Shown here one piece after another: positions 16,443 through 62,745 of a DNA stretch of 64,000 nucleotides. Numbering within the stretch: position 1 is the first letter of the stretch; each line of letters starts with the position of its first letter. The translations under genes and the position numbers were made by a program. The notes under the pieces are model-generated. The model was not told the DNA's origin. It ran no database searches and saw nothing but the letters and a program-made list of their open reading frames with translations. Origin of the DNA: an uncultured Alphaproteobacteria bacterium (GTDB lineage: Bacteria; Pseudomonadota; Alphaproteobacteria; RF32; CAG-239); the NCBI GenBank assembly GCA_964017825.1, contig CAXHMA010000001.1, forward strand, positions 83,928 to 147,927. The letters are read 5' to 3'.

Positions 16443-16560
16443 AGGAGAGAAATTTTGTGAGTGAGCCTGAAATGTCCGCCAAGGGAGGGAAGTGTACATA
16501 AAAGTACATGACCCGACCGAAGTGCGGCTTCCATCCACAAATTAGTTCACAATAATTTGA
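16443..16560 (+). repeat. Rep1 copy A (dispersed ~110-bp stem-loop repeat, core GTGTACATAAAAGTACATG, tail TTCCATCCACAAATTAGTTCACAA).
   Basis: Shares head module GAGAAATTTTG[C/T]GAGTGAGCCTGAAAT, core and tail with five other copies in the window. Confidence 0.75.
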
Positions 16561-16581
16561 GATAGACATCGATGGGTTCAA

Positions 16582-16632
16582 GGGCGCTTAAAATTTTAGT
16601 GTACACAATAGTACATGAATTTTAAGCGTCCC
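16582..16632 (-). terminator. Long perfect hairpin (14-bp stem) 3' of glycosyltransferase gene; loop carries GTACAC/GTACATG like Rep1 core.
   Basis: GGGCGCTTAAAATT ... AATTTTAAGCGTCCC inverted repeat. Confidence 0.4.
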
Positions 16633-16659
16633 GCAGAAACCGCGCTGGATGCTCAAATT

Positions 16660-17685
16660 TTATCCCTCTAAACCGTTATAGTACTTATACCACAACCTTT
16701 GTAGCATATAAAAGAACTCCGTCTTCGGTATGCTGATACCCAAAGGCTTTTTGGCGGATGCAAAATGCAAAATCGTCACGGGCGCAAAAACCTGCTCAAA
16801 GTTCTGCCAATTCCGCCCGTAAAACTCATTCATCGTCTTCAAATCAATATGCTCAAAGAAGAAATTAATCGCATTGGCCTCAAACGGCAGCAGCACCGCA
16901 TCATGGCCGACCACCACATTCAGCGCATCTTGATCCATATAAGTACGGAAATTGTTGTTGGTATAGTCTTCCAGCGCTTTAACCAGATGATCATCGCGGA
17001 TTTTCTTCAAGTTCATGAGCATCACGCCGGAATTGAAGTAATAGCCGCGTTCTTCCAGCCCCAGCTCAACAACGTGCATATTTTCAAAAAACCATGACGG
17101 GTCTTTAACCGCCGCCAGATATTTCCCCTCAATATCGGTTTTAAAGATATTGTTCAAATCATGCAAAACCAACACGTCCGAATCAATATAAAGCACCTTG
17201 TCAAGATTCGGCAAAACATCGGCGATATAATATTTCAACAGCGAGGTTTTGGAAACATGCGTATCGCGGATATAGAACAAATCAACTTCTTTCTGCGGCA
17301 AAACGGTTACGGTAACGTTTTCATCCGCCATTGCTTTCAGAGCTTCCGCATCCGCATCGGAAACACCCAAAGTCATAACATAAAAATTATATTTGGAAAG
17401 CGGGCATTTGGTTTGCTTCGCCGAATTTATCGCCACGCGCGTAAAATCTATATAATTCGTATCGGTAATCAAAACCGCATCAACCGTTCCGTCCACGCCG
17501 GTGCAGTCCTCCGGTGCTAAGGCCAAATCAAAATCATACGTCTGCGCCTGTTCGGCCGTTTCAAACTGCGCGCTGCCGTTTGCCGGCGCCGTTTCATCTA
17601 TATAATTTGCCCACAGCAGCAGCCCGACCACGATAACGGCCATAACATCCGCCACAATCACCCATTTCATGCCTTTGTCTTTCAT
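16660..17685 (-). CDS. Family 8 glycosyltransferase (LPS glucosyl/galactosyltransferase-like) with N-terminal membrane anchor.
   Basis: DxD motif LYIDSDVLV, GT8 blocks (NxGVMLMNL, HFxxxxKP). Confidence 0.75.
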   Translation of the reverse strand: MKDKGMKWVIVADVMAVIVVGLLLWANYIDETAPANGSAQFETAEQAQTYDFDLALAPEDCTGVDGTVDAVLITDTNYIDFTRVAINSAKQTKCPLSKYNFYVMTLGVSDADAEALKAMADENVTVTVLPQKEVDLFYIRDTHVSKTSLLKYYIADVLPNLDKVLYIDSDVLVLHDLNNIFKTDIEGKYLAAVKDPSWFFENMHVVELGLEERGYYFNSGVMLMNLKKIRDDHLVKALEDYTNNNFRTYMDQDALNVVVGHDAVLLPFEANAINFFFEHIDLKTMNEFYGRNWQNFEQVFAPVTILHFASAKKPLGISIPKTEFFYMLQRLWYKYYNGLEG

Positions 17686-17753
17686 TGTCGTCTCCTAAAA
17701 ATCAGCTTTTGCTCAGTATGAGCGCAAAGTGGTAAAAACCGCGTTAATAAAGA

Positions 17754-19367
17754 TTAAAAACGTTCTATGGATCGCTGATATCCCAATTTCAGATAAATTG
17801 ACTTTTTCCCGACAAAAAAATAAGGGCGCGCGGGAAAATTACTAAGTCCGAGAATAAGATCCGGCGGTTCCTCAAAATCGACTTTGGCGGCAAAGAATAT
17901 TGCGCTTTCTTTATCCTCTTGCGTCAACTGCTCGTTGCCCGACAATACATAAATGAAAGTATCCTTGATAAACATCGCGTCACCCCAAATCGGATTTTCC
18001 GCTTCATACAAAAATAAACCGGCAGAGAAAATATGATGCAAAAATTTGGAGTAGCCGTACAACTCTCTCAGTCTCTCCCTGTCTTCGCCATACACATATT
18101 CGTCTCCGGTAAATTTTTCCCTGCCGTAAAACCCGCCGTGCACAAACAGACGGTAATGCTGCCCCGGAACAAGCTCCGACATAAGCTCCGAACGCACCCT
18201 GTCTGCCGTGCGCTCATCCAGTTTGTCGCCCGAAACCCAGACTTTTTGAGCCGTCAAATCAGCTTTCGCATAGCTGAGCGTCAAAACCAAAGCCAAGGCA
18301 AAAGCGGCATTGCCGAGCCATTTTCGTCCGCCCGCAGAAGCCGTGGCAAAAAGTATAGCGCCGACATAGGGAACAGAAAAGAAATGAATACGATAAGTAT
18401 AAAAGAAATCTTTCGGTGACATAAACGCCATCGTAAACGAAACATATAAAAGTCCGACAATACCGAGCAAACCCATGACAAAGCGCCGCCGGCAATATGT
18501 CGCCCAAAGAGCCGCTGCGGCAAGCCCGCAAAGGCACCAGACGACAACGTCCGAACAATAAGGAAACCCGTCGGTCAACACCCGCAAGGGCTCATCCCAC
18601 CGCTCCCGAAACTTCACCCACATATCTTTAACGGGAAGCATCTGGATATTATACATTCCCCTTGATAACCACATTTTATAACGCAGATAGGCAATAGCTC
18701 CGCGATAGAGTAACCCTGCCGCCGCTATCCATCCGCCGGCTTTTACATAAGCAAAAATCGCTGCCCTGTCTGCTTTTCTGCCCTGCATCACGTCTGCCGA
18801 AAATTTCCCGAACACCAAAACCAGCGCCAGTTCAAACGAAGCCGCATATCCCCCCATACTGATAAACAAACAAAGGCACCCGCCGAACGCGTATAAAATT
18901 TTACCCTCTTCCGCACCCTTAAAAATCAACATCATCCCGACAACGCATAAAAGCGGCCAGAACAAAACGGATATAACCGAATGCACATACCAAATCTGCG
19001 TTAACAAATAAGGGTTCAAAACAATCAGAAGCGAATACAAAACAACCGGAATATAATCCTTCCGCACACCGTACCAACAGGCGGAAAGCACCGCCGCGGC
19101 ACTGAAAAACAAAAATCCGACAAGCGCCGAAAATATCGGCAAAAGCTGACCTTCCGTCAAAATAACGGGCAACACGAACTGTGTAAAACGCCCTTCCCAA
19201 AGTCCTTCGGTCATCTTAACGCCGTACCGCATATATTTATAATCGTGATTACCGACATAAAAGCTGCCGAGATAGAAAAGAAACACCGTTGTCAATATGC
19301 CGAAAACCAACCCCAGGCAGTTAAGCCAAAAGCCGTATTTCTCTCTCCAAGTCTTTTTTTGCGTCAT
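17754..19367 (-). CDS. Large polytopic membrane protein (537 aa), family unknown; paralog of split gene at 19460..21180.
   Basis: ~10 predicted TM segments plus C-terminal soluble domain; two paralogous ORFs align to its N- and C-halves. Confidence 0.6.
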   Translation of the reverse strand: MTQKKTWREKYGFWLNCLGLVFGILTTVFLFYLGSFYVGNHDYKYMRYGVKMTEGLWEGRFTQFVLPVILTEGQLLPIFSALVGFLFFSAAAVLSACWYGVRKDYIPVVLYSLLIVLNPYLLTQIWYVHSVISVLFWPLLCVVGMMLIFKGAEEGKILYAFGGCLCLFISMGGYAASFELALVLVFGKFSADVMQGRKADRAAIFAYVKAGGWIAAAGLLYRGAIAYLRYKMWLSRGMYNIQMLPVKDMWVKFRERWDEPLRVLTDGFPYCSDVVVWCLCGLAAAALWATYCRRRFVMGLLGIVGLLYVSFTMAFMSPKDFFYTYRIHFFSVPYVGAILFATASAGGRKWLGNAAFALALVLTLSYAKADLTAQKVWVSGDKLDERTADRVRSELMSELVPGQHYRLFVHGGFYGREKFTGDEYVYGEDRERLRELYGYSKFLHHIFSAGLFLYEAENPIWGDAMFIKDTFIYVLSGNEQLTQEDKESAIFFAAKVDFEEPPDLILGLSNFPARPYFFVGKKSIYLKLGYQRSIERF

Positions 19368-19459
19368 TAAAAACGTGCTCCTTTTTTACGGATATTTTAA
19401 TCTCTGGAACAAATGTAAAAACAAAGGTGTAAAAAGCAGGTTAATATCCGCATAATGTT

Positions 19460-22276: not shown

Positions 22277-22295
22277 AGCCCCCTTAAAACAGAAA

Positions 22296-22505
22296 ATCGC
22301 CCCGTTACAGGAGCGATTTTGCCCACCCTTAAAGGAGAGAAATTTTGCGAGTGAGACCAATCAGACTCACTCATTAAAAATTAAAGGAGGGAAATTTTGC
22401 GAAATAATCGCAGATGTCCTGCCCTAAAGCGCAGCGTACATAGAGGTACGAGAGCATTTAGGGACAGGCCTCCATCTGCGAATTAGTTCACAACAATTTA
22501 CCCCT
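22296..22505 (+). repeat. Rep1 copy B (with duplicated head modules) abutting adhE stop codon.
   Basis: GGAGAGAAATTTTGCGAGTGAG, GGAGGGAAATTTTGCGAAATAATCGCAGATGTCCTG, core GCGTACATAGAGGTAC, tail CCTCCATCTGCGAATTAGTTCACAA. Confidence 0.75.
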
Positions 22506-25139
22506 TTAAAAGGCGGTGTCGGTATCCCCAACCCATGCCAACTCATACATCTTGCGGATTTCTTCAATCAGCGGATAACGCGGGTTGGAACCGGTGCACT
22601 GGTCGTCAAACGCCAATGTCGGCAGCGTTTCCATAGCTTTCTTGAAGTCTTCCTCGGTGTATTCGTTGCGGATGGCAAACCATTCTTTGATAGACCCCGG
22701 GATGCCGATTTTCGTCTTCAGCTCTTTAATTGCCTCTACTAACGCATTAACTTTGTCGTCATCGGTCTTGCCCTTAAAGCCCATCGCAGCCGCAAATTCG
22801 GCATAAGCCGCTTTGGCGTGCGGGAACTTATATTGCGGGAAAGCACACTGCTTCGTCGGCTTGTCGGTTGCATTATAACGGATAACCTGACAAATTAACA
22901 ATGCATTGGCTACACCGTGCGGAATGTTAAAGTGCGAACCGAGTTTGTGCGCCATCGAATGGCAAACGCCCAAGAAAGCATTCGCAAATGCCATACCGGC
23001 AAGCGTTGCCGCCGCGTGAACTTTTTCGCGGGCGTATGCGTCCGCCGTCGCATAAGACTGCGGCAGATAGTCAAATACCAGCTTGCCCGCTTCCAAAGAC
23101 AATCCGCGCGTATATTCGGTCGCCATGGAAGATACATAAGATTCAAGCGCGTGCGTCAGAATATCAATACCCGAAGCCGAGCAGAGACCTTTCGGCATGG
23201 TCAGCACCAAATCACTGTCTACAATAGCCATGGAAGGTGTCAGCGCATAGTCGGCAATCGCATATTTCACGCCCTCACCGTCGTCGGTGATAATGGAGAA
23301 CGGCGTTACCTCAGAACCCGTACCCGATGTCGTCGGAATAGCAACGAGCATAGCCTTCTCGCCAAGCGGCGGAAATTCAAAAATACGTTTGCGGATGTCC
23401 ATAAAGCGCATGGCCAAATCTTCAAACTTCAATTCCGGATGTTCATACATCAGCCACAGAATTTTGGACGCGTCAATCGGCGACCCACCGCCCAAGGCGA
23501 TAATCACATCGGGCTCAAACGAACGCAGCGTCTCAATTGCTTTGTTGACGGTCGTCAAGTCAGGATCGGGATGAACATCGGAGAAGACTTTATACTGCAC
23601 GCCGATTTGTTCCAGCACATCGGTCACCTTACGCGTCATACCCAGGTCAAACAACGGCTTGTCGGTTACGATAAACGCTTTCTTTTTGCCTTTGAGTTCT
23701 TTCAAAGCCACACCCAAAGAACCGGGTTTGAAATAGATTTTCGGAGGAACTCTGAACCATAACATATTTTCCTCGCGCTTAGCCACACTTTTAATATTCA
23801 TCAGATGTTTTACTCCTACATTTTCACTAACCGAGTTGCCGCCCCACGAACCGCAGCCCAAAGTCAGAGACGGTTCCAGACGGAAGTTGTAAATATCGCC
23901 GATAGCACCCTGCGATGCCGGACAGTTAATCATCACACGCCCCGTAATCATGAGGTGCCCGTAATATTTAATGCGGTCGTCATTCATCGGGTTGGTGTAA
24001 AGGACGGACGTATGTCCTCTGCCGCCATGCGATACCAGAGACTTCGCCAAATCAGCACCGCTCTTGAAATCATCGGCTTTATACAGCGCCAATACCGGAG
24101 ATAATTTTTCCGCCGAAAACGGTTCTTCCGCCCCGACTTTTGTGCATTCGGCAATCAAAACTTTTGTCTCAGCGGGAACGGAAATTTTTGCCATTTCGGC
24201 AATCCTGTGCGCCGGCTGTCCGACGATTGCGGCGTTCAAATGCCCGTCAATCATAATCACTTTGCCGAGTTTTTCTTTTTCTTTGGCATTCAGGATATAG
24301 GCGCCGCGTTTGATAAATTCTGCCTTAACCGCGTCATATACGTCTTTGACGGCCGTTACCGACTGCTCGGAAGCGCAAATCATGCCGTTATCAAAAGTTT
24401 TGGACATCAAAATGGAAGAAACCGCCATTTCAATATCCGCCGTTTCGTCAATCAGCGCCGGCGTATTGCCCGCGCCCACGCCCAAAGCAGGCTTACCTGA
24501 GCTGTATGCCGATTTCACCATCCCCGGACCACCGGTTGCCAAGATAATATCAACATCAGGATGTTGCATCAAATATTGCGTACGCAAAATAGACGGCTCG
24601 TCAATCCAGCCGATAATGTCTTCCGGTGCACCGGCCTTCACCGCTTCTTCCAAAATCAAACGCGCCGTTTCCACAGTGCATTTCTTGGCGCGCGGGTGCG
24701 GCGAAAAGATAATGCCGTTGCGGGTCTTCAACGCAATCAAAGACTTGAAAATCGCCGTGGATGTCGGATTCGTCGTCGGAATAACGCCGGCAATCACCCC
24801 CAGCGGTTCCGCAATCTTAATCAGCCCGTTGGCTTTGTCTTCTTCCAACACGCCGCAAGTCTTCACGCATTTGAATTTGTTATAGATATATTCAGACGCA
24901 AAATGGTTTTTAATCACCTTGTCTTCCACCACGCCCATGCCGGTTTCCTCAACCGCCATTTTCGCCAGCGGAATTCTGAGAGAGCTTAATTTCAAAGCCA
25001 CTCTGCGAAAGATATGGTCAACCTGCTCTTCCGAATATTCCGCAAACTTTTTTTGCGCCGCGGCCACTTTTTTAACCAGCGCGTCAATATATGCCTTTTC
25101 CTGTTCCTCGGTTACCTGAACCTGATTTTCTTTTGCCAT
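22506..25139 (-). CDS. adhE: Bifunctional acetaldehyde-CoA/alcohol dehydrogenase.
   Basis: 877 aa; N-terminal ALDH domain (catalytic Cys region MICASEQS), C-terminal Fe-ADH domain (GGGSPxD, His-rich metal site). Confidence 0.95.
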   Translation of the reverse strand: MAKENQVQVTEEQEKAYIDALVKKVAAAQKKFAEYSEEQVDHIFRRVALKLSSLRIPLAKMAVEETGMGVVEDKVIKNHFASEYIYNKFKCVKTCGVLEEDKANGLIKIAEPLGVIAGVIPTTNPTSTAIFKSLIALKTRNGIIFSPHPRAKKCTVETARLILEEAVKAGAPEDIIGWIDEPSILRTQYLMQHPDVDIILATGGPGMVKSAYSSGKPALGVGAGNTPALIDETADIEMAVSSILMSKTFDNGMICASEQSVTAVKDVYDAVKAEFIKRGAYILNAKEKEKLGKVIMIDGHLNAAIVGQPAHRIAEMAKISVPAETKVLIAECTKVGAEEPFSAEKLSPVLALYKADDFKSGADLAKSLVSHGGRGHTSVLYTNPMNDDRIKYYGHLMITGRVMINCPASQGAIGDIYNFRLEPSLTLGCGSWGGNSVSENVGVKHLMNIKSVAKREENMLWFRVPPKIYFKPGSLGVALKELKGKKKAFIVTDKPLFDLGMTRKVTDVLEQIGVQYKVFSDVHPDPDLTTVNKAIETLRSFEPDVIIALGGGSPIDASKILWLMYEHPELKFEDLAMRFMDIRKRIFEFPPLGEKAMLVAIPTTSGTGSEVTPFSIITDDGEGVKYAIADYALTPSMAIVDSDLVLTMPKGLCSASGIDILTHALESYVSSMATEYTRGLSLEAGKLVFDYLPQSYATADAYAREKVHAAATLAGMAFANAFLGVCHSMAHKLGSHFNIPHGVANALLICQVIRYNATDKPTKQCAFPQYKFPHAKAAYAEFAAAMGFKGKTDDDKVNALVEAIKELKTKIGIPGSIKEWFAIRNEYTEEDFKKAMETLPTLAFDDQCTGSNPRYPLIEEIRKMYELAWVGDTDTAF

Positions 25140-25254: not shown

Positions 25255-25329
25255 TTATATTTTAAAATCAAGGGCATGGAAAATTGCATCCCGGCCAATC
25301 AACAAAACGATAAGGCATAATTTTTTCAT
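25255..25329 (-). pseudogene. Remnant 5' cassette (24 aa: MKKLCLIVLLIGRD...) of the secreted-paralog family, ATGA-overlapping the stop of 25326..26087.
   Basis: Nucleotide string AAGGCATAATTTTTTCAT identical to the starts of three upstream paralogs. Confidence 0.4.
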
Positions 25330-26087
25330 GGTTCCCTGTTTTCTCCGTATTTGGCCGCCGCTTCGTTTAAAAGGGTGTCTGCGGCATGTTCCAGCAACAC
25401 ATTGGTTTTGAATTTGACTGTATATTCTCTAAGCTGATATTCCGGATTCAGATATGAATAATACTTTTTTGTTTCATCTGCCATTCTGACGAAAGCTTCT
25501 GTTACCTCTGCTGCTTTATCAGGGTAAAATTGCGTTGCGGCCGTATCAATAATTTCATAAACACACCGCTCGTAACCATCGGCATATGCTCTTTCCGCCA
25601 CATGAATTGCCTTGATGTTGCCGTCATCATCTTTCAGTTCCGAACGATAGGGGACAAAATCGCCGCACTGTTCCAATTTTTGCCGCAGTGCATTAACTGC
25701 TTCTATTCCATATGGATGTTCGGCATCTAAATATTCTTTGACTTCGGTTCGCGAAAAATCAGCACATTGAACAATGTAACCAAGATTTCGGTATATTTCA
25801 GCCTTGTCAGTCGGTATGTAAATATAAGCGATATCCGTCTCCAAGCCGTTAATATATATGAGCCTTTCCTGTATTTTATCATCGGCAATCGCCTTGACCG
25901 AAGCCGGCGCTATTTTACGCGCTTTGTTATCGCCCTGACACGTCGGACAATAATGTATCACCTCTTTGGCATTCTGTAACAGTTTGACGGCGTTTTCAGC
26001 AATGTCTGCCGTATTGTAAACGCAGATATCGGCATGCGCCGTTATCGCAGCCAAACACAGCAAAACAATAAGGCATAATTTTTTCAT
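25326..26087 (-). CDS. Secreted Cys-containing hypothetical protein (253 aa) sharing only its signal peptide with neighbours.
   Basis: Signal peptide MKKLCLIVLLCLAAITAHA; ATG start. Confidence 0.6.
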   Translation of the reverse strand: MKKLCLIVLLCLAAITAHADICVYNTADIAENAVKLLQNAKEVIHYCPTCQGDNKARKIAPASVKAIADDKIQERLIYINGLETDIAYIYIPTDKAEIYRNLGYIVQCADFSRTEVKEYLDAEHPYGIEAVNALRQKLEQCGDFVPYRSELKDDDGNIKAIHVAERAYADGYERCVYEIIDTAATQFYPDKAAEVTEAFVRMADETKKYYSYLNPEYQLREYTVKFKTNVLLEHAADTLLNEAAAKYGENREP

Positions 26088-26090
26088 GAT

Positions 26091-27014
26091 TTACTCCTCA
26101 TTTAAATCACATTTGAGGCGGTTTTGTTTTTCAAAACAATCTTTATGTACGAGATATAAATCTTTTTTATTGAAATAGTCTATATAAAGAGCATAAAAAT
26201 CATTCGGGTTAAAAGTTATTTGATGAATCAATTTGTTACGGCGGTCTAAATTAAATTCAGTATAAGGCTTTCCGTCTTTGCCGATAATCACAGAACCGTC
26301 AGCTTTAAATTCAAACGAAGCCCTGCCGCATGTAAGCTTAGGATTATCTTTCAGCCGATAATAATTCTCCGGCAATGTGCTTCCTTCCTCATATGAATGC
26401 AGTTCAATAAATCCTTTCCCTAAATCCTCATAGCAGTTTAGTTCAACGACGTTAAACTCGGGAAAGACAACCTTATCTTCATCAGCCAATATCAGTTCGT
26501 AACTGGTTTCCTCCGGTATATCCGGCATTTTATAATCATAACGGCAGTAGCTTCGGTCAGCCCCTTCATAAGCGCATCCGCGCACAAAAATTTTGCCGTC
26601 TTTTATGCCGACGGAATCATATATGCCGTCAGCTTCTCGACCGAACGGGAATAAATTGCCTAAGTATTTTTTCCCTGCATACAGCTGTACGGCCAATTTA
26701 TAGCTATATGGATATGACTGCATAAACACTGGTGTAAATTTCATTTTATATTCAACACCGTCAATAACGCAGCTTTCTTCGCGCGGTATTGGTTTTGTTT
26801 GAGTTGTTGTGACGTTATATTCGTATAATCCGTGTTTTTGTGCTCTCTGTGCCCAATCCTTATCTTCCGGTTCGGCAAAAAAATCTTTCATATCCGTACG
26901 GAATTCTTTTACATTTGGCAGACAGCTTGTTTTGTATGTATATTCATAATAACTTGTCGCATGTGCCGTTATCGCAACCAGACACAGCAATATTAAAAGG
27001 CATAATTTTTTCAT
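26091..27014 (-). CDS. Secreted Cys-rich hypothetical protein, tandem paralog A (307 aa).
   Basis: ~70% aa identity to 27014..27949; signal peptide MKKLCLLILLCLVAITAHA; start ATG overlaps upstream stop (TGATG). Confidence 0.65.
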   Translation of the reverse strand: MKKLCLLILLCLVAITAHATSYYEYTYKTSCLPNVKEFRTDMKDFFAEPEDKDWAQRAQKHGLYEYNVTTTQTKPIPREESCVIDGVEYKMKFTPVFMQSYPYSYKLAVQLYAGKKYLGNLFPFGREADGIYDSVGIKDGKIFVRGCAYEGADRSYCRYDYKMPDIPEETSYELILADEDKVVFPEFNVVELNCYEDLGKGFIELHSYEEGSTLPENYYRLKDNPKLTCGRASFEFKADGSVIIGKDGKPYTEFNLDRRNKLIHQITFNPNDFYALYIDYFNKKDLYLVHKDCFEKQNRLKCDLNEE

Positions 27015-27949
27015 CAATTTATCTCCTTAAACATATTGCAGCCGGAGCATTCTTCCTTTTCAGAGCAAAATCTGCTGTTCGAATACAGTTCCTTTTTATC
27101 AAAATATTTTATATAAAAACCCGCAAGCAAACTCGCATCAAAAGCTATTTGATAAATCTGTTTGTTACAGAGTGCCGGATTAAAGTCAGCATACGTTTTT
27201 TCATCTTTGCTGACGATGACCGAACCGTCAGCTTTAAATTTTATGGAAGCCCTGCCGCATGTAAGCTTAGGATTATCTTTCAATCGATAATAATTTTCCG
27301 GCAACTCGCTTTCTTCCTTATAAGAACGCAGCTCAACAAATCCTTTTTCCAAGTCTTCATAGCAGTTCAATTCAACGATGTTAAATTCCGGAAAGACAAC
27401 CTTGTTTTTATCAGCCAATATCAATTCATAACTGGTTTCTTCAGGCATATCCAACTCTTTATAATCATAAAGGCAATAACTTATATTGGTTGCCTCGTAA
27501 ATACAACCTCGCACAAAAATTTTGCCGTCTTTTATGCCGACGGAATCGTAGCCGTCATCATAATCCGCACCAAACGGAAAAAGGATGCCCCTATATTTTT
27601 TTCCGGCGTAAAGCTGCACAGCCGTCTCATGACGGCCATAATATTCCCGAACAAGTATAGGAATAAATTTCATTCTATATTCAACACCGTCTATGGTGCA
27701 GCTTTCTTCCCTCGGCAGCGGCTTTTCTTCATATGTATCCACATTGAGCCTGTATAATCCGTGTTTTTCAGCTTTTTGTAACCAATCTGCATCATCCCGA
27801 ACATCAAAAAAAACTTTTCTGTCTGCACGGAATTCTTTTACATTCGGCAAACAGCTTGTTTTATATGTATATTCATAATAACTTGTCGCATGTGCCTTTT
27901 TGGCAAACGCAGCCAAACACAGCAATATTAAAAGGCATAATTTTTTCAT
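27014..27949 (-). CDS. Secreted Cys-rich hypothetical protein, tandem paralog B (311 aa).
   Basis: Paralog of 26091..27014; same signal-peptide cassette. Confidence 0.65.
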   Translation of the reverse strand: MKKLCLLILLCLAAFAKKAHATSYYEYTYKTSCLPNVKEFRADRKVFFDVRDDADWLQKAEKHGLYRLNVDTYEEKPLPREESCTIDGVEYRMKFIPILVREYYGRHETAVQLYAGKKYRGILFPFGADYDDGYDSVGIKDGKIFVRGCIYEATNISYCLYDYKELDMPEETSYELILADKNKVVFPEFNIVELNCYEDLEKGFVELRSYKEESELPENYYRLKDNPKLTCGRASIKFKADGSVIVSKDEKTYADFNPALCNKQIYQIAFDASLLAGFYIKYFDKKELYSNSRFCSEKEECSGCNMFKEIN

Positions 27950-27952
27950 GAT

Positions 27953-28687
27953 TTACTCTTGTTCTAAATTAAAAACTTTTGCCGTTTCGTTCATGTACCA
28001 TGCAACCACTTTTTTAATTTCAGTATAACGGAATGCGGCAATATAATCCTCAACGACGGTGCCGTTGTCATAATTTTCCGTCGGGGTATATATATCCCGC
28101 AGCAGAGTTTCATATGCAGTCAAATAATTATCAAAATTTTTTTTATATTTATCTGCGTTATCGAGATGGCAGTTTTTAAACAATGAAGACAGTGTTTGCA
28201 AATAACATTCTTCCGCTTCTGTAAGATTACTGTTTTGTACATTGCCGTATAGTTCTTCGCATTGCTGATATCGTTTCTGCGTCTGCATAAATTTATCACG
28301 CATGGAAATATATATTTTATCAGAACCTATTTCTTTCAAAAGACGATTATCATCCGTTTTGCAACCGATTATCAGTCCTAAATTTTGATATGTTCCGGAT
28401 ATTTCAGAATAAACAAAGAAATCCGTTGCCGCATAACTGTTGTCTTTTATGCTGAAACGTCCGAACTCCAAACTGTTTTCATCTGTTGTGAAATCAATAT
28501 CGGCAAAAGAAATCTCCTGCGGTTTAGTGTTTTCAAACAGCAGAATTTCTTTTGCGGATGATAAAACATTTTCTGCTTTTTCCATTTCCTCAACGCTGAG
28601 GGCATCGCATCCGCAATAATCAGCCCGAGCCATGTATATAGGAAACAGCATTAAAACAGAGATAAAGATTAAAATTTTATTTTTCAT
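27953..28687 (-). CDS. Secreted Cys-containing hypothetical protein (244 aa).
   Basis: Signal peptide MKNKILIFISVLMLFPIYMARA; operonic with neighbours. Confidence 0.55.
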   Translation of the reverse strand: MKNKILIFISVLMLFPIYMARADYCGCDALSVEEMEKAENVLSSAKEILLFENTKPQEISFADIDFTTDENSLEFGRFSIKDNSYAATDFFVYSEISGTYQNLGLIIGCKTDDNRLLKEIGSDKIYISMRDKFMQTQKRYQQCEELYGNVQNSNLTEAEECYLQTLSSLFKNCHLDNADKYKKNFDNYLTAYETLLRDIYTPTENYDNGTVVEDYIAAFRYTEIKKVVAWYMNETAKVFNLEQE

Positions 28688-30523: not shown

Positions 30524-30669
30524 ATCGTTCTCCTCTATAAAAAAAGACTTCAAACCGCACCGTCCGAAGTCCTGAATTAAAAATCGTATATTATAATAAA
30601 TATACTTTTGGGAGAATGTCAATACTTTCAGAGACAGAGATGTAAATATTTTTTATGGAAAAAATATGG

Positions 30670-30893
30670 CAGAAATTTTGCGAAGCAGCCGCGGGAGCCT
30701 TACCCGCGTTACGCCCCGTTACAGATGGGAAATTTTGCGAAATAACCGCGGGAACCCTGCCCCATTACAGGCGGAAAATTTTGGTAGTGAGCCTGAAATA
30801 TCCGCCAAAGGGCAGGAGTGTACATAAAGGTACATGACTGCCCTGCAGAGCGGCTTCCATTTCAGAACTCAATACCAAAATTTACCCCTGTAA
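30670..30893 (+). repeat. Rep1 copy C (three head modules + core) abutting pyk stop codon.
   Basis: GAAATTTTGCGAAGCAGCCGCGGG, GGGAAATTTTGCGAAATAACCGCGGG, GTGAGCCTGAAATATCCGCC, core GTGTACATAAAGGTACATG, tail GGCTTCCATTTC...AATTTACCCCTGTAA. Confidence 0.75.
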
Positions 30894-32790: not shown

Positions 32791-32834
32791 CTCTGTTACA
32801 TCAGCCTTTCTGCGTTCATAATTTTATATAAAAT

Positions 32835-32940
32835 GCGGAATTTTGCTTTAATATCGCGGGAGCCCTGCCGGGGAGGAGAGTACATTGAAGTACATGGCCC
32901 GACCGACGACAGGCCCCTCCCGCGAATTAATTTACAAAAT
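32835..32940 (+). repeat. Rep1 copy D, ends 8 nt before stop of permease gene.
   Basis: GGAATTTTGCTTTAATATCGCGGGAGCC, core GAGTACATTGAAGTACATG, tail CCCTCCCGCGAATTAATTTACAAAAT. Confidence 0.7.
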
Positions 32941-32948
32941 GACACATT

Positions 32949-41009: not shown

Positions 41010-41010
41010 G

Positions 41011-41652: not shown

Positions 41653-41754
41653 CTGATGAGGCGGAGCTTGTCAACTCCGCCCTTTGATTTTTACTCTGCC
41701 ACATCTCTCACTCTGACGGATTGTTAGGCGAGAAAGTGCTGTGCTGAAAGCAAA

Positions 41755-41940: not shown

Positions 41941-42480
41941 TTATCGTGCAACAACGACCATTGCTTCGCGAAGAATGCGGTCATGTATGGTATACCCCGC
42001 CTGTAATTCGGCTAAAATGGTACCGGGTTCGGCTTTTTTGTCTTCCACTTCTTGGACGACGCGTTCAAAGTTGGGGTCAAATATCTCTCCGATATGATTG
42101 AAACGTTTGATGCCGAATTTTTCAAACACTTTGGTTAATTCGTTTTGTGTCAGCTCCACGCCTTTGAGCAGGTCGGCGCACGCCTGTTCGTTGCCGGACA
42201 TGGCGGTAACCGCGCGCTCCAGATTGTCGGCGACACCTAGTAGCTCTTTGGCAAAAGATGAAATGGCAAATTTAATTGTTTTTTCGGTTTCCTGCTGCAC
42301 GCGTTTTTTCATGTTATCCATTTCGGCATACAGGCGGAGATAGTCGTCTCTAAGCTTATTATATTCTTCTATGCTTTTGGTTTCTTCCGCAGCGTCCTCT
42401 TCGGCTTCAGCGCAAACTTCTTCCTCTGCCGGCAGTTCGTCCTCGGGATTATTTTTCAACTCTTCGTTTTCAGTGCTCAT
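41941..42480 (-). CDS. grpE: Nucleotide exchange factor GrpE.
   Basis: Acidic N-tail, LRLYAEMDNMKKR, C-terminal beta domain. Confidence 0.9.
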   Translation of the reverse strand: MSTENEELKNNPEDELPAEEEVCAEAEEDAAEETKSIEEYNKLRDDYLRLYAEMDNMKKRVQQETEKTIKFAISSFAKELLGVADNLERAVTAMSGNEQACADLLKGVELTQNELTKVFEKFGIKRFNHIGEIFDPNFERVVQEVEDKKAEPGTILAELQAGYTIHDRILREAMVVVAR

Positions 42481-47725: not shown

Positions 47726-48484
47726 ATGTCTCAAAACAGCCAAACCGATAAACACAAAGTAGTTGACTGGGAAAAAAAGTCAGGCAGCGATTCCGAACGC
47801 ATTAATAAACGAATGAAAAAGCGCAAACCCGCAGCCTGTGCCGTTCCCGATTCCTTTCCGGTAAGACCGCCGCGCGCCGTCGGACAGCCGTTGCTGCGCC
47901 TGCGCAAAAAAATAAAAGAGATTTACGAAGAAGAAGACGAAGATGAAAATGCACCTTTGTTTAATATTGAACTGTTTGAAGAAATGGATGAAAACAAACA
48001 ACAAAAAGAAGCATCCGAAACATTGCGCATCACCAAACAAATGGAATTGGCCGGAAAACTCAACCTTATCATGAATACGGCACTTGTTGCCGAACAGGCG
48101 GGACTGAACCCGAAAATGACGGCAGAAGACGCAAAACTCGCCAACACGGCAGAATATGACCTTAAAAAAATCCGCAGTAAAACGCTGAACTCAAAAGTGG
48201 AAAAACCGCTGGGTTTGAAAGGTAAACTTCCCGAACAAGACATCAGCACCGCCGTCAAAGGTATAAAAAAAGCCAAAGAAAACCTGCCGCCGGATTCTCT
48301 TGCTGATTTTCCTGCCGGTGATGCCGCAGAACTTGCCGCTTTGGACGAAGAAGACATGGCTGAATTAATCTTACGCAAATCCGGCAGAAAAGCTCCTAAA
48401 AAAAGCCTGTCGGAAATTGCCAAAGGCCTTAACAATTTAAACAGCATTGAAAACAATGAACCGGACAACAGAGAAAACGTCTGA
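47726..48484 (+). CDS. Acidic low-complexity hypothetical protein.
   Basis: AGGAG RBS before MSQNSQTD; Glu/Asp/Lys-rich. Confidence 0.45.
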   Translation: MSQNSQTDKHKVVDWEKKSGSDSERINKRMKKRKPAACAVPDSFPVRPPRAVGQPLLRLRKKIKEIYEEEDEDENAPLFNIELFEEMDENKQQKEASETLRITKQMELAGKLNLIMNTALVAEQAGLNPKMTAEDAKLANTAEYDLKKIRSKTLNSKVEKPLGLKGKLPEQDISTAVKGIKKAKENLPPDSLADFPAGDAAELAALDEEDMAELILRKSGRKAPKKSLSEIAKGLNNLNSIENNEPDNRENV

Positions 48485-48563
48485 ACCGTATAAAGCTCAT
48501 TGACACTTATAAATAATTGTGATATGCTGAATGCGTTGTAATTTGCAAAACAAAGGCCAGGCT

Positions 48564-48980
48564 ATGGAAAACCAGTATTATACTTTGATTGAAAAACAGG
48601 ATTTTTTTGAAATCATCGAAAACAAATTCGGCGAACTCGCAATTTTTATTGACGCCCGCAAAGGTGAACCTTTAAATCCCCAGCTGGAATTTGACGGTAA
48701 AGACACCGCTTTGTTAAAAAGGGATAACCGCATCGCCGTCAAAATGCAGGGAATTAATTCCGAAACCGGCGCCGTTTTGGCCGAAGCCGAGTTTGTCATG
48801 ATTGTGGAACTCAAAGGCGAAACCGTGGAAAGAACATACGGCGTTCCTGTTGATACCGTGGAGGAGTTTTCGTTCAAAGGACGCCAGACAAGGGCTGACG
48901 AACTGGAGCGGATTAAAAGCAAAGATGAAATCATCAAAGCCTTTGGCGCTGTTAAAATCTGGAAAAGCGGAGAAAAATAA
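48564..48980 (+). CDS. Hypothetical protein, first gene of EIIA-HPr-MTase operon (stop overlaps EIIA start).
   Basis: TAATG overlap with next gene; no P-loop, so not HprK. Confidence 0.45.
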   Translation: MENQYYTLIEKQDFFEIIENKFGELAIFIDARKGEPLNPQLEFDGKDTALLKRDNRIAVKMQGINSETGAVLAEAEFVMIVELKGETVERTYGVPVDTVEEFSFKGRQTRADELERIKSKDEIIKAFGAVKIWKSGEK

Positions 48981-49378
48981 TGATTGGAATAGTATTGGTC
49001 ACGCACGGTAATTTGGCTGACGAATTTCTTTCTGCCATGCAGCATGTTGTCGGACATCAGGAACAGATAGCCACAGCCTGCATCGGCCCTAATGACGATA
49101 TGAATGAACGCCGGAATGATATTTTGGCAAAAGTAGAAAAAGTTGACAGCGGCGACGGCGTTATTGTATTAACTGATATGTTCGGCGGCACCCCGTCCAA
49201 TCTGGCTATTTCCATTATGGACCGCGCCAATATTGAGGTTATTGCCGGCGTCAACCTGCCGATGCTGGTAAAATTAAATGCATTGCGCAAAGAAAAGAGC
49301 TTAAAAGAAGCGGTAACCGGTGCCAAAGAAGCCGGCATCAAATATATCACCATAGCTTCCGAATTGTTGGGAAAATAA
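48980..49378 (+). CDS. PTS EIIA component, mannose/fructose family (regulatory EIIA-Man type).
   Basis: MIGIVLVTHG with phosphorylatable His; 132 aa. Confidence 0.85.
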   Translation: MIGIVLVTHGNLADEFLSAMQHVVGHQEQIATACIGPNDDMNERRNDILAKVEKVDSGDGVIVLTDMFGGTPSNLAISIMDRANIEVIAGVNLPMLVKLNALRKEKSLKEAVTGAKEAGIKYITIASELLGK

Positions 49379-49379
49379 A

Positions 49380-49658
49380 ATGAGCGATAAAATCAGCGTA
49401 GAACTCAAAATCATAAATGAACGCGGACTGCACGCCAGAGCTGCCGCCAACTTTGTCAAAAGTATAGACGGGTTGAATGCCGATGTTGAAGTGGAACGCC
49501 TCGGTCAATGTGTCGGCGGCTGTTCCATTATGGGGTTGATGATGCTTGCCGCCGGCAAAGGAACAACGATTAAAGTTTCGGCAAGCGGCGCGGATGCCCA
49601 AAAAGCCATCAACAATATTTCTGATTTGGTAAACAATAAATTCGGCGAGGAAAAATGA
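49380..49658 (+). CDS. ptsH: Phosphocarrier protein HPr/NPr.
   Basis: GLHARAAA around His15; 92 aa. Confidence 0.85.
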   Translation: MSDKISVELKIINERGLHARAAANFVKSIDGLNADVEVERLGQCVGGCSIMGLMMLAAGKGTTIKVSASGADAQKAINNISDLVNNKFGEEK

Positions 49659-50587
49659 GCGGCACCCCTGCCCCCCGTAATAAAACCATAGTTCTGACAC
49701 CCGAAGAAACGGAACAATACGCAGCGCGTGCCGTAACGCTTACCAAAAAATCTTCATTAAAAGATATCATAGACCGCACCATTTGGCAGGATACATTCGA
49801 AGCCTTAAAATTTCTTCCCGCCAATTTCGCCGATTTGGTCGTTGTCGACCCGCCTTATAATCTGACCAAAAAATTCGGCAGCAAAGAATTCAAGTCCATG
49901 GATTGGAATGATTACAAACGCTGGATGGATAAATGGCTGGCGGAAGTGTTTATCTCTTTAAAGCCCAACGGCAGTCTGTATATCTGCTCCGATTGGAACA
50001 CATCCATCGCCGTTCCCGAAATTGCCGGCAAATATTTCCTCTTAAAAAACCGCATAACCTGGGAGCGCGAAAAAGGCAGAAGCTCCGGCAACAACTGGAA
50101 AAACTGCATTGAAGACATCTGGTTTTTTACCAAATCTCCCGAATACACGTTTAATCTGGATGCTGTCAAATTAAAGCGTCCGGTGCTCGCACCGTATAAA
50201 GACGATAACGGTACCCCGAAAGACTGGCAGGAAGATGATGAAAATGACGGTAAAAAATTCCGCCTGACAGCACCGTCAAACCTTTGGACGGATATCTCCA
50301 TTCCGTTTTGGTCAATGGCTGAAAACACATCTCATCCGACGCAAAAGCCGGAAAAACTCATTGCCAAGCTGATATTGGCTTCAAGCAATGAGGGCGACGT
50401 CGTTTTTGACCCGTTTCTCGGCTCGGGAACCACTTCCGTCACCGCGGCCAAGCTCGGACGGCACTATGTCGGCATTGAACGCGAAAAAGAATATGTAGCC
50501 TTGGCCGAAAAGAGGCTGGAAAGGGCTGCCGAAGACAAAACCATCCAAGGCTACGAAGACGGCGTTTTCAAACTCCGCCATGCTTAA
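49655..50587 (+). CDS. Beta-class N6-adenine DNA methyltransferase, CcrM-like orphan (no adjacent endonuclease).
   Basis: Motif IV DPPYN near N-terminus, motif I FDPFLGSGTT near C-terminus; ATGA overlap with HPr stop. Confidence 0.8.
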   Translation: MSGTPAPRNKTIVLTPEETEQYAARAVTLTKKSSLKDIIDRTIWQDTFEALKFLPANFADLVVVDPPYNLTKKFGSKEFKSMDWNDYKRWMDKWLAEVFISLKPNGSLYICSDWNTSIAVPEIAGKYFLLKNRITWEREKGRSSGNNWKNCIEDIWFFTKSPEYTFNLDAVKLKRPVLAPYKDDNGTPKDWQEDDENDGKKFRLTAPSNLWTDISIPFWSMAENTSHPTQKPEKLIAKLILASSNEGDVVFDPFLGSGTTSVTAAKLGRHYVGIEREKEYVALAEKRLERAAEDKTIQGYEDGVFKLRHA

Positions 50588-50645
50588 CGGCTCACCGCAC
50601 ACTATTAATAACATAGCATTTTTGCCATAAAATACAAAAAAACAG

Positions 50646-50866
50646 TTGCAAAAATAGATAATTCGTTATATAAACCATCTAAGAAGCTGCTAATAAACAG
50701 GTCCGGGGCGTCAGAAACCCTGTAAGCAATCGTTTCCATAACGAAGGACATCGCGTTTTGAGGAGTTAAAGGACGGACGTCGGCGAATAAGAGCTTGCTC
50801 AAATAAGCCGAGCCGTTGATTGCTTACGGTTTCTGAACGTCCGCCCGCCTTTTCGTGCGGGCTTTT
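50646..50866 (+). ncRNA. Candidate ~185-nt sRNA with own promoter (TTGCAA-17-TATAAA), ~25-bp imperfect closing helix and intrinsic terminator; no ATG inside.
   Basis: 5' arm GGGGCGTCAGAAACCCTGTAAGCAATC pairs with 3' arm GATTGCTTACGGTTTCTGAACGTCCGCCC; terminator GCCCGCCTTTTCGTGCGGGC+TTTTT. Confidence 0.45.
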
Positions 50867-50902
50867 TCATTTTCTGCTTGAAACATCTCAAAAATCTAAA
50901 AT

Positions 50903-50936
50903 AGCTATTGAGTTTTATGAGTTTTCCCCCTATATA
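50903..50936 (+). promoter_or_regulatory. Putative sigma70 promoter of ftsH (TTGAGT-17-TATATAAT).
   Basis: Consensus-like hexamers ~70 nt upstream of ftsH start. Confidence 0.3.
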
Positions 50937-51005
50937 ATACAGGAATGGATTGTTTGTAAAAAAAACAGTTCCCGCAATCATGCAACATATTTCTGATAGG
51001 AAACA

Positions 51006-52877
51006 TTGAGAATGAAACAGGGAAAAAATATTATCATCTGGTTGGCAGCTTTTGTTTTTCTGAGCCTTGCCTTAAACGGCCTCGCTCCCGAAAGCAGAAC
51101 CGGAACTGCCGAAAAAATCGCCTTTTCCGACTTTATGGACAGTGCGGAAGAAAACCGCGTCAATTCTGTCACCATTGTCGGCAACGATATACAGGGCACT
51201 TATAATGACGGTACCAAATTCCATACCTATGCGCCCTTTGACCCGAATATGATTGAAAGTTTAAGAAAGCTGAATATCAAAATCGAAGCCCGCCCGATAG
51301 ATACATCCGAAAGCACTTTCTGGGGCGTGCTGATTTCCTGGTTCCCGATGCTGCTTCTTATCGGCGTTTGGATATTCTTTATGCGTCAGGCCAATAGCGG
51401 CAACAATAAAGCCATGAGTTTCGGCAAATCGCGCGCCAAACTGATAGAAAACACCAAACGCGTGACTTTCGCGGACGTAGCCGGCGCGGATGAAAGCAAG
51501 CAGGAACTGGAAGAAATTATCGACTTTTTAAAAGACCCGCAGAAATTCCAGCGTCTGGGCGGCAAAATTCCGCGGGGCGTTTTGCTTGTCGGCCCTCCGG
51601 GAACAGGTAAAACCTTGTTGGCCAAAGCTGTGGCAGGCGAGGCTAACGTACCGTTTTTCTCCATTTCCGGCTCGGATTTTGTCGAAATGTTTGTCGGCGT
51701 CGGAGCTTCGCGTGTGCGTGATATGTTTGCCCAAGCCAAAAAAAACGCACCCTGCCTGCTCTTTATTGATGAGATTGATGCCGTCGGACGCCATCGCGGC
51801 GCCGGTCTCGGCGGCGGCAATGACGAACGCGAGCAAACCTTAAACCAATTGCTGGTGGAAATGGACGGTTTTGACGCCAACGAAAACGTCATCCTGATTG
51901 CCGCAACCAACCGCCCCGACGTGCTTGACCCTGCGCTTTTGCGCCCCGGGCGTTTTGACCGACAGGTAACGGTTGTGAACCCCGATGTCAAAGGGCGTGA
52001 GGAAATCTTAAAAGTACACACGCGCAAAGTGCCTTTGGCCAAAGATGTGGATTTAAGCATTGTTGCCCGCGGCACACCGGGATTTTCCGGCGCGGATTTG
52101 GCAAACCTTGTCAATGAAGCCGCACTTTTGGCTGCCCGTAAAAATAAGCTCAAAGTCAGCTCAGCCGACTTTGACGCGGCCAAAGATAAAGTCTTAATGG
52201 GCAACGAACGCAAATCCATGGCTATGGACGAGAAAGAAAAAATGCTCACGGCATATCATGAAGCCGGGCATGCTATCTGCTCGTTAAACGTCAAAGATAC
52301 CGACCCGATACATAAAGCGACAATTATCCCCCGCGGCCGCGCGCTCGGCATGGTGCAGCAGTTGCCGGAAAAAGACCGGTATTCATACACGCGCGCGCAG
52401 ATGCTTTCCCGCCTTGCCATCATGATGGGCGGACGTGTTGCCGAAGAAATGAAATTCGGTTATGACGCCGTAACATCCGGCGCTTCGTCAGACATCAACG
52501 CCGCCACCAATCTGGCGCGTGCCATGGTGACCGAATGGGGCATGAGCGATATATTGGGACCGATTCGCTATTCCGAAAACTCCAATGAAGTTTTCCTCGG
52601 GCGTTCCGTTACCCAAAACCAAAACATGAGCGAAGAAACCGCGCGCCTTGTGGATACGGAAATCAAACGCCTTGTCACTGACGGTTACGAAGAAGCGAAA
52701 AAGATTCTGCAAAAGAATAAAAAAGATTGGGAAACGCTTGCACAGGCATTAATGGAATATGAAACCTTAACCGGAGACGAAATTAAAGACGTCCTTGCCG
52801 GAAAAGAGATTGACAAGACCAAAGATGCCCCGGTTCCGGAAGAAAAGCGCACCAAATCTTCCGTACCCGAGCTGTAA
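51006..52877 (+). CDS. ftsH: ATP-dependent zinc metalloprotease FtsH.
   Basis: Two TM, AAA Walker [12 protein letters not shown], zinc site HEAGHA. Confidence 0.95.
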
Positions 52878-59861: not shown

Positions 59862-59885
59862 CCCTGAGATAAAAGGTTCTCAACC

Positions 59886-61037: not shown

Positions 61038-61038
61038 C

Positions 61039-61067: not shown

Positions 61068-61070
61068 AAG

Positions 61071-62045: not shown

Positions 62046-62201
62046 AAATTACATATATTTAAGATTAATAATTCACATACTGCTGTTTAATTGCTTCGTT
62101 TATAAATAAAAAATCATTCCGAGTCAAATATTTTCTACTTTAAAAACCGCGCGCAGAGATTATCTGAATCATACCGTTAATTCAATCAAAAGGAAGATAT
62201 C

Positions 62202-62279
62202 ATGAATAAAGTCATTACCTATCTCGTTTATATCTTAATCGCCGTCATCTTAATCTGGCTTATTCGCTCATTTATTTAA
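62202..62279 (+). CDS. Small hydrophobic peptide (25 aa: MNKVITYLVYILIAVILIWLIRSFI).
   Basis: AAGGAAG RBS; N-terminus paralogous to next ORF. Confidence 0.35.
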   Translation: MNKVITYLVYILIAVILIWLIRSFI

Positions 62280-62303
62280 ACACACGCCGCAAAGGAGGAA
62301 ATT

Positions 62304-62534
62304 ATGGGAAAACTCATCACCTACATTGTTTATTTTCTGGTTGCCGTCGCCATATATGTCTTAATCCGCGCGGCATATACCGGTACGATTAATTCCGACA
62401 CCACTATCGGCCAAGCCGCAACGGAAGTCAAAAACGGCAGCGTGGAAACCATCCGCGACATGAAAAACGAAGCAGCCTCAGCCATAGACAATATGGCCGC
62501 AGACAGCACCAACGCCGCCCCGCGGAATCAATAA
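62304..62534 (+). CDS. Small membrane-anchored protein (76 aa) with N-terminus paralogous to upstream peptide.
   Basis: GGAGG RBS; MGKLITYIVYFLVAVAIYVLIR TM helix. Confidence 0.45.
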   Translation: MGKLITYIVYFLVAVAIYVLIRAAYTGTINSDTTIGQAATEVKNGSVETIRDMKNEAASAIDNMAADSTNAAPRNQ

Positions 62535-62551
62535 TAACCCGACTCATAATC

Positions 62552-62585
62552 AAAAATCCCCGTGGTAATACCTCGGGGATTTTTC
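62552..62585. terminator. Bidirectional intrinsic terminator.
   Basis: AAAAATCCCCGTGGTAATACCTCGGGGATTTTT. Confidence 0.65.
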
Positions 62586-62597
62586 AAATTTTGCAAT

Positions 62598-62745
62598 CAG
62601 TTCACAAAATTACATATCCACTAAAAAACTGCGGAATTTTGCGAAATAATCGCGGATGTCCTGCGAGGGAGGGGAGTGTACAAAAGGTACATGACCCGAC
62701 CGATGACAGGCTTCCACCCGCGAATTAGTTCACAAAATTACACTG
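62598..62745 (+). repeat. Rep1 copy F flanked by 16-bp direct repeats AGTTCACAAAATTACA; 3 nt from rplQ stop.
   Basis: GGAATTTTGCGAAATAATCGCGGATGTCCTG, core GTGTACAAAAGGTACATG, tail CAGGCTTCCACCCGCGAATTAGTTCACAA. Confidence 0.75.

Follow-up and report, generated by a model that had tools for sequence, protein, structure and literature searches.

Rep1, a hairpin repeat bound to stop codons and to one replication strand in uncultured gut Alphaproteobacteria

We analyzed a 64,000-nt stretch of DNA (hereafter the window) from an uncultured alphaproteobacterium (assembly GCA_964017825.1, contig CAXHMA010000001.1, positions 83,928 to 147,927) and found that it carries six copies of a hairpin repeat, Rep1. 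Rep1 is a structured element that has moved, and it obeys two orientation rules at once: it lies at the stop codon of a gene in that gene's sense, and its mRNA-sense strand is the G-rich strand of the DNA. Compared with the small palindromic repeats known in other bacteria, it appears to be a new relative that is unusually strict, set apart by this double orientation rule, by a stop codon inside the stem, and by an apex kept across sister families whose termini differ. The reading we favor, to which we give about an even chance, is that Rep1 is a non-coding mobile hairpin repeat of the REP, REPIN, or miniature inverted-repeat transposable element (MITE) kind, resident in uncultured gut and rumen Alphaproteobacteria, which would spread through single-stranded DNA (ssDNA) and be co-transcribed as part of 3′ untranslated regions (UTRs).

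To count the copies in the window, we combined reading of the sequence with a fuzzy module search, resulting in six full copies, each with a core of exactly 103 bp from head to tail and each with that core on the plus strand. The core motif alone matched four times (up to 3 mismatches) and never in 100 shuffled sequences, and repeat families D2, D3, D9, and D11 coincide with the places previously reported for Rep1. We also built a covariance model; run over the whole window with filters off, it returned exactly these six full copies (91–138 bits, minus-strand sense), together with their reverse-complement shadows (16–33 bits) and one degenerate core hairpin at 16586–16630. The initial annotation of this sequence had listed six copies in a single orientation, with head, core, and tail strings and arm pairs, all of which proved correct; the arms read GCAGATG/CATCTGC in copy B, GCGGATG/CATCCGC in copy E, and GGGCAG/CTGCCC in copy C. 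Its starts at 22296, 30670, 41755, and 62598 mark real copies, though these positions cover adjoining partial modules and not the unit itself. The palindrome is also longer than was described, spanning ~123 nt from outer stem to outer stem in the window copies, and, copy A excepted, it takes in or touches the stop codon in each of them.

Copies outside the window were collected in several ways. A contig of the metagenome-assembled genome (MAG) GCA_965648045.1 encodes a pyruvate kinase identical to that of the window, beside the LptD, LptF/G, and SurA genes. A pattern scan of species-representative genomes yielded 44 loci, ~30 of them in MAGs of gut or rumen Alphaproteobacteria representing at least 10 species and the rest chance matches; a metagenome scan with an inner-domain pattern added 38 loci. 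With nhmmer we obtained 130 matches in 71 loci, including 72 distinct full-length Rep1 copies. The loci are MAG pieces of 2–20 kb, amounting to ~0.9 Mb. Two pattern scans of IMG/VR gave nothing or chance matches that the covariance model rejected, and blastn of GenBank phages found no Rep1.

Rep1 sits directly behind genes. In a first census, the stop codon of the tail-side gene faced the element in 46 of 48 clusters, usually 2–22 nt away, and on the head side 22 clusters had a co-directional gene and 22 a convergent one. The exceptions were L008, where a 126-aa gene in fact ends 16 nt before the element, and L029, where the element lies behind tRNA-Ser and its terminator. We then performed a test that needs no gene caller on the 64 single or array-proximal copies of the pooled set. 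An open reading frame (ORF) ending at the copy reached at least 60 codons in 56/64 and at least 100 codons in 54/64; at the mirror (head) end, no copy had one of at least 100 codons. In the 54, the stop codon starts −24 to +8 nt from the first U of UUGUGAAC, with the conserved TTGTGAAC as the reference point for this interval. The others run into a contig end, follow a degenerate copy (as copy A of the window does), or are unclear. The position and orientation bias, which had been put at a chance of about 1/32 from the window copies, is thus real and far stronger than claimed.

The stop offsets fall into three groups (−20 to −13, −10 to −4, and +3/+8). The 5′ arm of Rep1 carries stops in all three frames, all three of which are used; the offset groups correspond to these stops, and the stop in use is therefore often inside the unit. 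When sister families were included, an ORF of at least 100 codons ended at the 5′ boundary in 73/86 clusters, compared with 8/86 at the mirror end. TAA was not significantly enriched as the host stop (45/56 versus 204/287 in the background). The host genes have no functional theme: they encode GrpE, LepB, Sua5, an amino-acid permease, Pyk, AccD, GT8, AdhE, PepF, RNase E/G, PGI, RlmE, RecA, RpoC, Era, FtsZ, MetRS, CorA, RplQ, U32 peptidase, CarD, a phage portal protein, and terminase.

The second rule concerns the replication strand. GC skew of the window's plus strand is about −0.15 throughout, plus-strand genes included. The mRNA-sense strand of the element was the G-rich strand in 31/31 loci, in 49/49 loci with a full copy once metagenome loci were added, and in 64/65 loci when all matches were counted, the exception being a 1.7-kb contig. 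This sign of the skew persists inside oppositely transcribed genes in 23/27 loci, and ribosomal-protein operons, used as a control, gave the same sign. Matches on both strands of one locus occurred in 0/71 loci, and no copy was found behind a lagging-strand gene among the loci examined. Given the local mix of gene strands, the probability that all additional clusters would follow genes of the host orientation is ~8 × 10−4. Because stop adjacency in the gene sense and the G-rich-strand rule both hold, orientation is tied to the abutting gene as well as to the replication strand; RNA function alone does not predict the replication-strand rule, and a rule of replication only does not predict the gene rule. 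As a separate observation, the skew is ~0 at window positions 48001–52000, against about −0.15 everywhere else in the window, and this segment may be inverted or recently acquired.

The two rules bear differently on an account in which Rep1 is purely a host-selected, cis-acting RNA element of the 3′ UTR, not now mobile, and placed where its function in stability, processing, or translation termination requires. Strict adjacency to the stop codon in gene sense is what such an element should show, but the absence of copies behind lagging-strand genes and the 64/65 link to the G-rich strand are unpredicted by it. We regard this account as unlikely, and further evidence on both sides of it is given below. 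The strand link would in turn suit a DNA-level chromosomal site, either a BIME-like site for gyrase or a nucleoid protein or an attC-like folded ssDNA site for a tyrosine recombinase. A DNA-level site, however, offers no rationale for stop adjacency within a few nucleotides or for stops in three frames, and we consider it very unlikely.

To describe the anatomy of the hairpin, we aligned 45 copies together with their flanks, all oriented as the upstream gene is transcribed. The unit is an imperfect palindrome of ~123–135 nt that reaches beyond the 103-bp core, and both strands of every copy fold into one long bulged hairpin. Fold energies of the copies range from −28 to −52 kcal/mol, and those of full units, which have the stop codon at the base of the stem, from −41 to −52. 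The outer stem is AU-rich and of two main types, UUUAAAUGGGUAAAUUUUG.../...CAAAAUUUCCCGCAUUUAAA and UAAAAACNGUGUAAUUUUG.../...CAAAAUUCCGCGGUUUUUA. It is followed by stem P1 (UUGUGAA/UUCGCAA), in which a U·G pair is retained in 40/45 copies on the mRNA-sense strand, and by stem P2, for example CGCGGAUG/CAUCCGCG. A conserved asymmetric internal loop, GAAG opposite A, separates two covarying inner stems; inside it are a stem of 4–5 bp, a variable inner stem, and the conserved apex UCA-YGUAC-N6-GUACR-CUC. We considered reading the GAAG/A loop as a K-turn and rejected this by inspection because it lacks tandem G·A pairs.

The stems covary. Across 27 core pairs, assessed with RNAalifold and pair counting, 96.3% of cells were paired, versus 84.1% after shuffling and 29–45% with a slid partner, these cells not being independent events. 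Both sides had changed in 19/27 core pairs, and the covariation score of 0.384 (versus 0.161) was reached by 0/500 shuffles. The outer stem, 72% paired in a fixed register, covaries too, and in the outer, middle, and inner regions alike, cognate arms pair better than non-cognate arms (0/2000 permutations each). The initial annotation had proposed that compensatory changes preserve the hairpin; the two-sided changes and the stems that covary beyond shuffles bear this out. Covariation of all stems and the retained U·G pair are also what a host-selected RNA element would display. Arm-to-arm template switching in DNA palindromes could mimic compensation without selection, however, and neither covariation nor an excess of G·U pairs can separate an RNA hairpin from an ssDNA hairpin of the same strand.

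Rep1 might instead be nothing more than an unusually long intrinsic terminator. A U-run lies at or past the 3′ outer arm in 18/45 copies, and our search for a separate terminator after copies A, C, and E found none. Most copies nevertheless lack the U-run directly after the stem that defines such terminators, separate conventional terminators follow or precede copies B and F as well as the copies in L053, L054, and L029, and tandem arrays of up to five units would not be expected. We find this explanation highly improbable.

Nor does the architecture sit easily with a standard cut-and-paste MITE of DDE insertion sequence (IS) origin, for instance an IS630/Tc1-like one with a TA target, that is selfish and inert and whose pattern was left by purifying selection. 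Rep1 does conform to a loose definition of a MITE, with arms that are inverted repeats over ~60 nt, a small body without coding capacity, ends that read TA|A...T|TA or TTAA, modular and truncated derivatives, and three-frame stops at one end, a feature of RUP and Correia-type elements. Yet double-strand cut-and-paste predicts no fixed orientation to either gene or replication, and neutral sites further downstream in convergent spacers are, bar one case, never used. Sister families keep the apex and vary at the termini, opposite to the pattern expected of a transposase-bound terminal repeat. Direct target duplication could not be shown, the ends of Rep1 being themselves palindromic (TTAAA..TTTAA and TAAAAA..TTTTTA), and no cognate autonomous IS with the same termini was seen in the fetched loci. 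We judge this origin distinctly unlikely.

Some orthologous copies show signs of constraint. Orthologous genes whose third codon positions are only 0.34–0.70 identical still carry an element, and in three pairs the element itself is far better conserved: 0.98 identical versus 0.69 at third codon positions for lepB, 0.96 versus 0.61 for sua5, and 0.89 versus 0.50 for grpE. At grpE, the last codons (MVVVAR and the stop) are the pairing partner of the 3′ outer arm, and by eye, two outer-stem pairs have changed on both sides at synonymous sites between two species. The carD alleles of L053 and L054 differ by one such two-sided outer-stem change. This conservation above synonymous sites, along with the compensatory changes in grpE codons and between two carD strains, again agrees with a host-selected RNA element. 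Position and orientation bias, two-sided pair changes, and conservation of orthologous copies together argue against inert debris, as the initial annotation had held. Its further view that Rep1 is a selected 3′-UTR RNA element, which might act in stability or processing, finds partial support in position, covariation, and constraint; the replication-strand link and the mobile behavior are not predicted by pure RNA function. We also considered that the outer stem could be a native terminator split by the element. This fits outer stems of the A-run/U-run type but was rejected for the grpE copies, in which the 5′ arm is coding sequence.

Several features of Rep1 point to mobility and turnover. 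It forms tandem arrays of two to five units, and the window contains truncated derivatives and a chimeric copy (A). A prophage-like region with portal and large terminase genes (L039, 1–8000) holds four Rep1 copies, each oriented like the phage genes. Density differs several-fold among close relatives: in ~230 kb around rplQ of relatives with 84–97% identical RplQ we found 3 model matches, versus 6 in the 64-kb window. Different family members occupy the same stop codon in different species, as seen at adhE (the window versus L009), for three pyk copies, and at the U32 peptidase gene, which across species is followed by Rep1, by either of two sister families, or by nothing. In two assemblies of one species, the carD site (L053, 13809–13945; L054, 15532–15658) has 98–100% identical flanks and the same 18-bp outer stem around interiors of ~100 nt that cannot be aligned with each other; both fold, and the L054 interior belongs to a further, unsampled family. 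A host-selected RNA element predicts neither the arrays, chimeras, prophage copies, and the copy past a tRNA terminator nor the density differences and swapped interiors at one site. It would also have no Rfam family to its name: the window had no match at the gathering score, and a search around two copies at E values up to 10 gave chance-level matches only.

Replacement of an interior within a fixed outer stem is cassette-like, and the reading as a DNA-level site gains from it, as it does from the direct repeat GTAC-N6-GTAC conserved at the apex with its conserved bulges. attC sites are imperfect hairpins of 57–141 bp directly behind ORFs, in fixed orientation, more conserved in structure than in sequence and with conserved unpaired bases, and their strand-specific ssDNA folding depends on the replication strand (PMC5371416). 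We nevertheless rejected membership of Rep1 among attC sites, as the R″/R′ boxes (RYYYAAC ... GTTRRRY) are absent from the consensus; Rep1 further lacks a cassette array, no integrase was seen in the loci examined, and its hosts are dispersed core housekeeping genes.

Sister families share the inner GGAAGCC / GTAC..GTAC domain with Rep1 and differ in the outer arms (AGTRCTGTCA ... CAGCACAGCRCTT). We found them at L047 3620–3990, L055 9670–9960, window positions 41733–41828, and L002 5539–5604; they too occur in tandem and directly behind stop codons. A small GC-rich palindrome, CCCGTGGCGCTGCCAC, is nested in two Rep1 copies of a single genome (MAG MGBC103325; L018, 2855–2970, and L041, 955–1071), with a similar case in L047, and may be a second, smaller mobile hairpin. 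At window positions 62749–63342 and in L046–L057, rplQ and rpoA are separated in most relatives, and RplQ differs in the length of its Ala/Glu-rich C-terminal tail; the C-terminus of the U32 peptidase likewise varies where elements adjoin. This variation suggests that element insertions may remodel protein C-termini.

Among characterized repeats, Rep1 resembles those of the REP/BIME and REPIN-RAYT kind in Enterobacteria and Pseudomonas, which are dispersed extragenic hairpin repeats at gene 3′ ends, co-transcribed, and, in the case of REPINs, of similar size. REPINs also persist vertically over the long term at orthologous sites (bioRxiv 10.1101/2021.07.10.451892), as Rep1 does, and an ssDNA mechanism that includes R-loops has been proposed for RAYT/REP elements (PMC3333891). 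Rep1 departs from them in being one long hairpin and not two short REP palindromes, with arms that hold no separately conserved short palindrome, in its one strict orientation to gene and replication, and in having the stop codon inside the stem. With IS200/IS605 elements it shares strand specificity: these recognize hairpins and insert beside a short specific sequence, and their top strand is active on the lagging-strand template, giving a genomic orientation bias (PMC5027513). Rep1 shows a corresponding bias to the G-rich strand in 64/65 loci, with replication direction read from skew only. Other palindromic repeats of 100–170 bp, namely Correia/NEMIS in Neisseria, RUP and BOX in pneumococcus, ERIC in Enterobacteria, SMAG in Stenotrophomonas, and RPE in Rickettsia, are transcribed with their neighbors and can alter mRNA processing, and the repeated head modules of Rep1 recall the modularity of BOX. 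Copies of these families lie in either orientation and at differing distances from genes, and we know of none that is restricted to the stop codons of leading-strand genes.

Under the favored reading of Rep1 as a mobile hairpin repeat, the element would spread through an ssDNA hairpin intermediate exposed on the lagging-strand template, as for IS200/IS605 and RAYT/REP elements, which would fix its orientation relative to replication. Insertion or survival would be possible only within ~20 nt around stop codons. Co-transcription would then place a hairpin of ~60 bp at the start of the 3′ UTR, where it would most likely act as a barrier to 3′-to-5′ exonucleases, as a brake on terminating ribosomes, or both. 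The analogy is with REP stabilizers in general and with E. coli REPs no more than 15 nt from a stop codon, which stall ribosomes according to the account of Liang et al. 2015 in PMC12306157.

A number of observations weigh against this reading. At rplQ, a relative with 97% identical RplQ has an empty 3′ end, and no insertion junction can be defined there because its downstream DNA is non-homologous; at the U32 peptidase gene, filled, differently filled, and empty states were seen without an alignable flank. Neither comparison provides a clean empty site. No transposase was identified in the ~0.9 Mb of loci, in which no gene was flanked by inverted copies; in particular, these pieces gave no RAYT (a Y1 HUH transposase) and no TnpA, and none of the 71 loci has Rep1 matches on both strands flanking a gene. 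In IS200/IS605 elements each end has its own subterminal hairpin and terminal inverted repeats are lacking, whereas Rep1 is a single end-to-end palindrome, and the 45-copy consensus lacks the conserved GTAG or CGTC tetranucleotide that marks one end of the 20–40-bp REP unit, GTAG appearing only in a few subfamily-2 head arms. Replication direction was inferred from GC skew only, on short pieces; genes were called by an ORF heuristic; and most loci were fetched because they hold the element, an ascertainment bias that affects density and the overlap of host genes. Finally, the C-to-T bias of the G-rich strand confounds the excess of G·U over A·C (34 versus 19 in P1–P4). We set it aside as proof of RNA, since strand mutation bias gives the same pattern.

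A bolder variant, which we hold only tentatively and with more doubt than belief, is that the element homes by an undescribed mechanism to the first nucleotides after the stop codons of co-directionally replicated genes, that its interiors are exchangeable cassettes, and that the host has co-opted it as a 3′-UTR module. In one possible scheme, a hairpin-specific ssDNA enzyme would act on the sense strand where an R-loop exposes it at the start of ribosome-free transcription, and the same strand would be exposed again on the lagging-strand template. Hairpin interiors would be exchanged within a locus-specific outer stem, and the co-opted element would serve as a general module coupling translation termination to protection of the mRNA 3′ end.

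Small palindromic repeats are common in bacteria, and why they sit where they do is mostly unknown. A family with so clean a rule (one orientation, placement at stop codons, and leading-strand genes only) makes the question of targeting directly testable, and it allows the direction of transcription to be told apart from that of replication, two constraints normally confounded. Any effect of the hairpins on mRNA decay or termination would extend to the expression of many core genes, among them rpoC, recA, ftsZ, grpE, pyk, and adhE, in a group of gut bacteria that is widespread but uncultured. Element orientation could also mark the local direction of replication in fragmented MAGs.

The individual window copies are described here in minus-strand sense. 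Copy A (16442–16565; core 16450–16552; 91 bits) is a chimera, its head arm being of subfamily 2 and its tail arm of subfamily 1, and has the weakest fold of the six (−28.4 kcal/mol, z −2.1). It is separated from the GT8 stop codon (16660–16662) by the degenerate copy at 16586–16630, which retains only an apical GTAC..GTAC hairpin with its own stem (17 bits, model positions 53–97). Copy B (22384–22506; core 22391–22493; −44.9 kcal/mol, z −7.2; 129 bits) has an outer stem that begins on the final base of the adhE stop codon (22506–22508). Downstream of it in the adhE sense is an intrinsic-terminator-like hairpin with a U-run (22293–22320), and between the two lies a short head-only derivative with its own 7-bp hairpin, GAGTGAG...CTCACTC (22340–22375). 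Copy C (30768–30891; core 30776–30878; −44.4 kcal/mol; 118 bits) has subfamily-2 arms, sits 2 nt past the pyk stop codon (30894–30896), and is in tandem with two additional head-arm modules that start at 30673 and 30729 (30673–30767).

Copy D (32830–32950; core 32836–32938; 94 bits) overlaps with its outer stem the stop codon of the amino-acid permease gene (32949–32951), in a spacer convergent with a small plus-strand gene. The outer stem of copy E (41829–41951; core 41836–41938; 117 bits) takes in the grpE stop codon (41941–41943) and the last grpE codons; this copy has orthologous copies in two other species and is in tandem with the sister-family remnant at 41733–41828 (repeat family D2), whose outer arm reads ...CAGCACAGCACTTT. 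Copy F (62626–62748; core 62633–62735; 138 bits; full unit −50.8 kcal/mol) directly follows the rplQ stop codon (62749–62751), with an outer stem UAAAAAC.../...GUUUUUU. Further downstream are a mini-element of fused head and tail termini without an interior (62585–62612) and, by eye, a bidirectional terminator-like hairpin AAAAATCCCCG...CGGGGATTTTT (62553–62590, assigned to neither strand), to which terminator-containing Rfam models align at sub-threshold scores; the mini-element lies between copy F and this hairpin. The initial annotation had placed all six copies between stop codon and terminator. That arrangement holds for copies B and F, the only ones with a clear minus-strand terminator past the element (for F, by eye), while copies D and E face terminators of convergent plus-strand genes and no terminator was found after copies A or C in the window.

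Other features of the window lie apart from these copies. Four tandem paralogous genes with a period of ~930 bp occupy 25326–28687 (repeat families D1, D4, D5, and D7), and a 42-nt tandem repeat at 11933–12016 codes for a Gly-rich stretch. Two non-coding leaders of ~215 nt, at 16198–16415 and 41010–41232 in minus-strand sense, are ~94% identical to each other and lie directly upstream of small HTH-like genes whose proteins are only 38% identical. Their shared sequence begins at a promoter-like site, includes a terminator-like hairpin (GGCGCTTTTAAGCGCC and a U-run) and an AAGGAG site, and ends exactly at the ATG. The leader has no Rfam match and is a candidate attenuator or riboregulator. On the minus strand at 30544–30622, a strong promoter-like site (11/12 matches) has a terminator-like hairpin within 20 nt; it lies upstream of the gene ending at 29372 and may likewise be a leader or attenuator.

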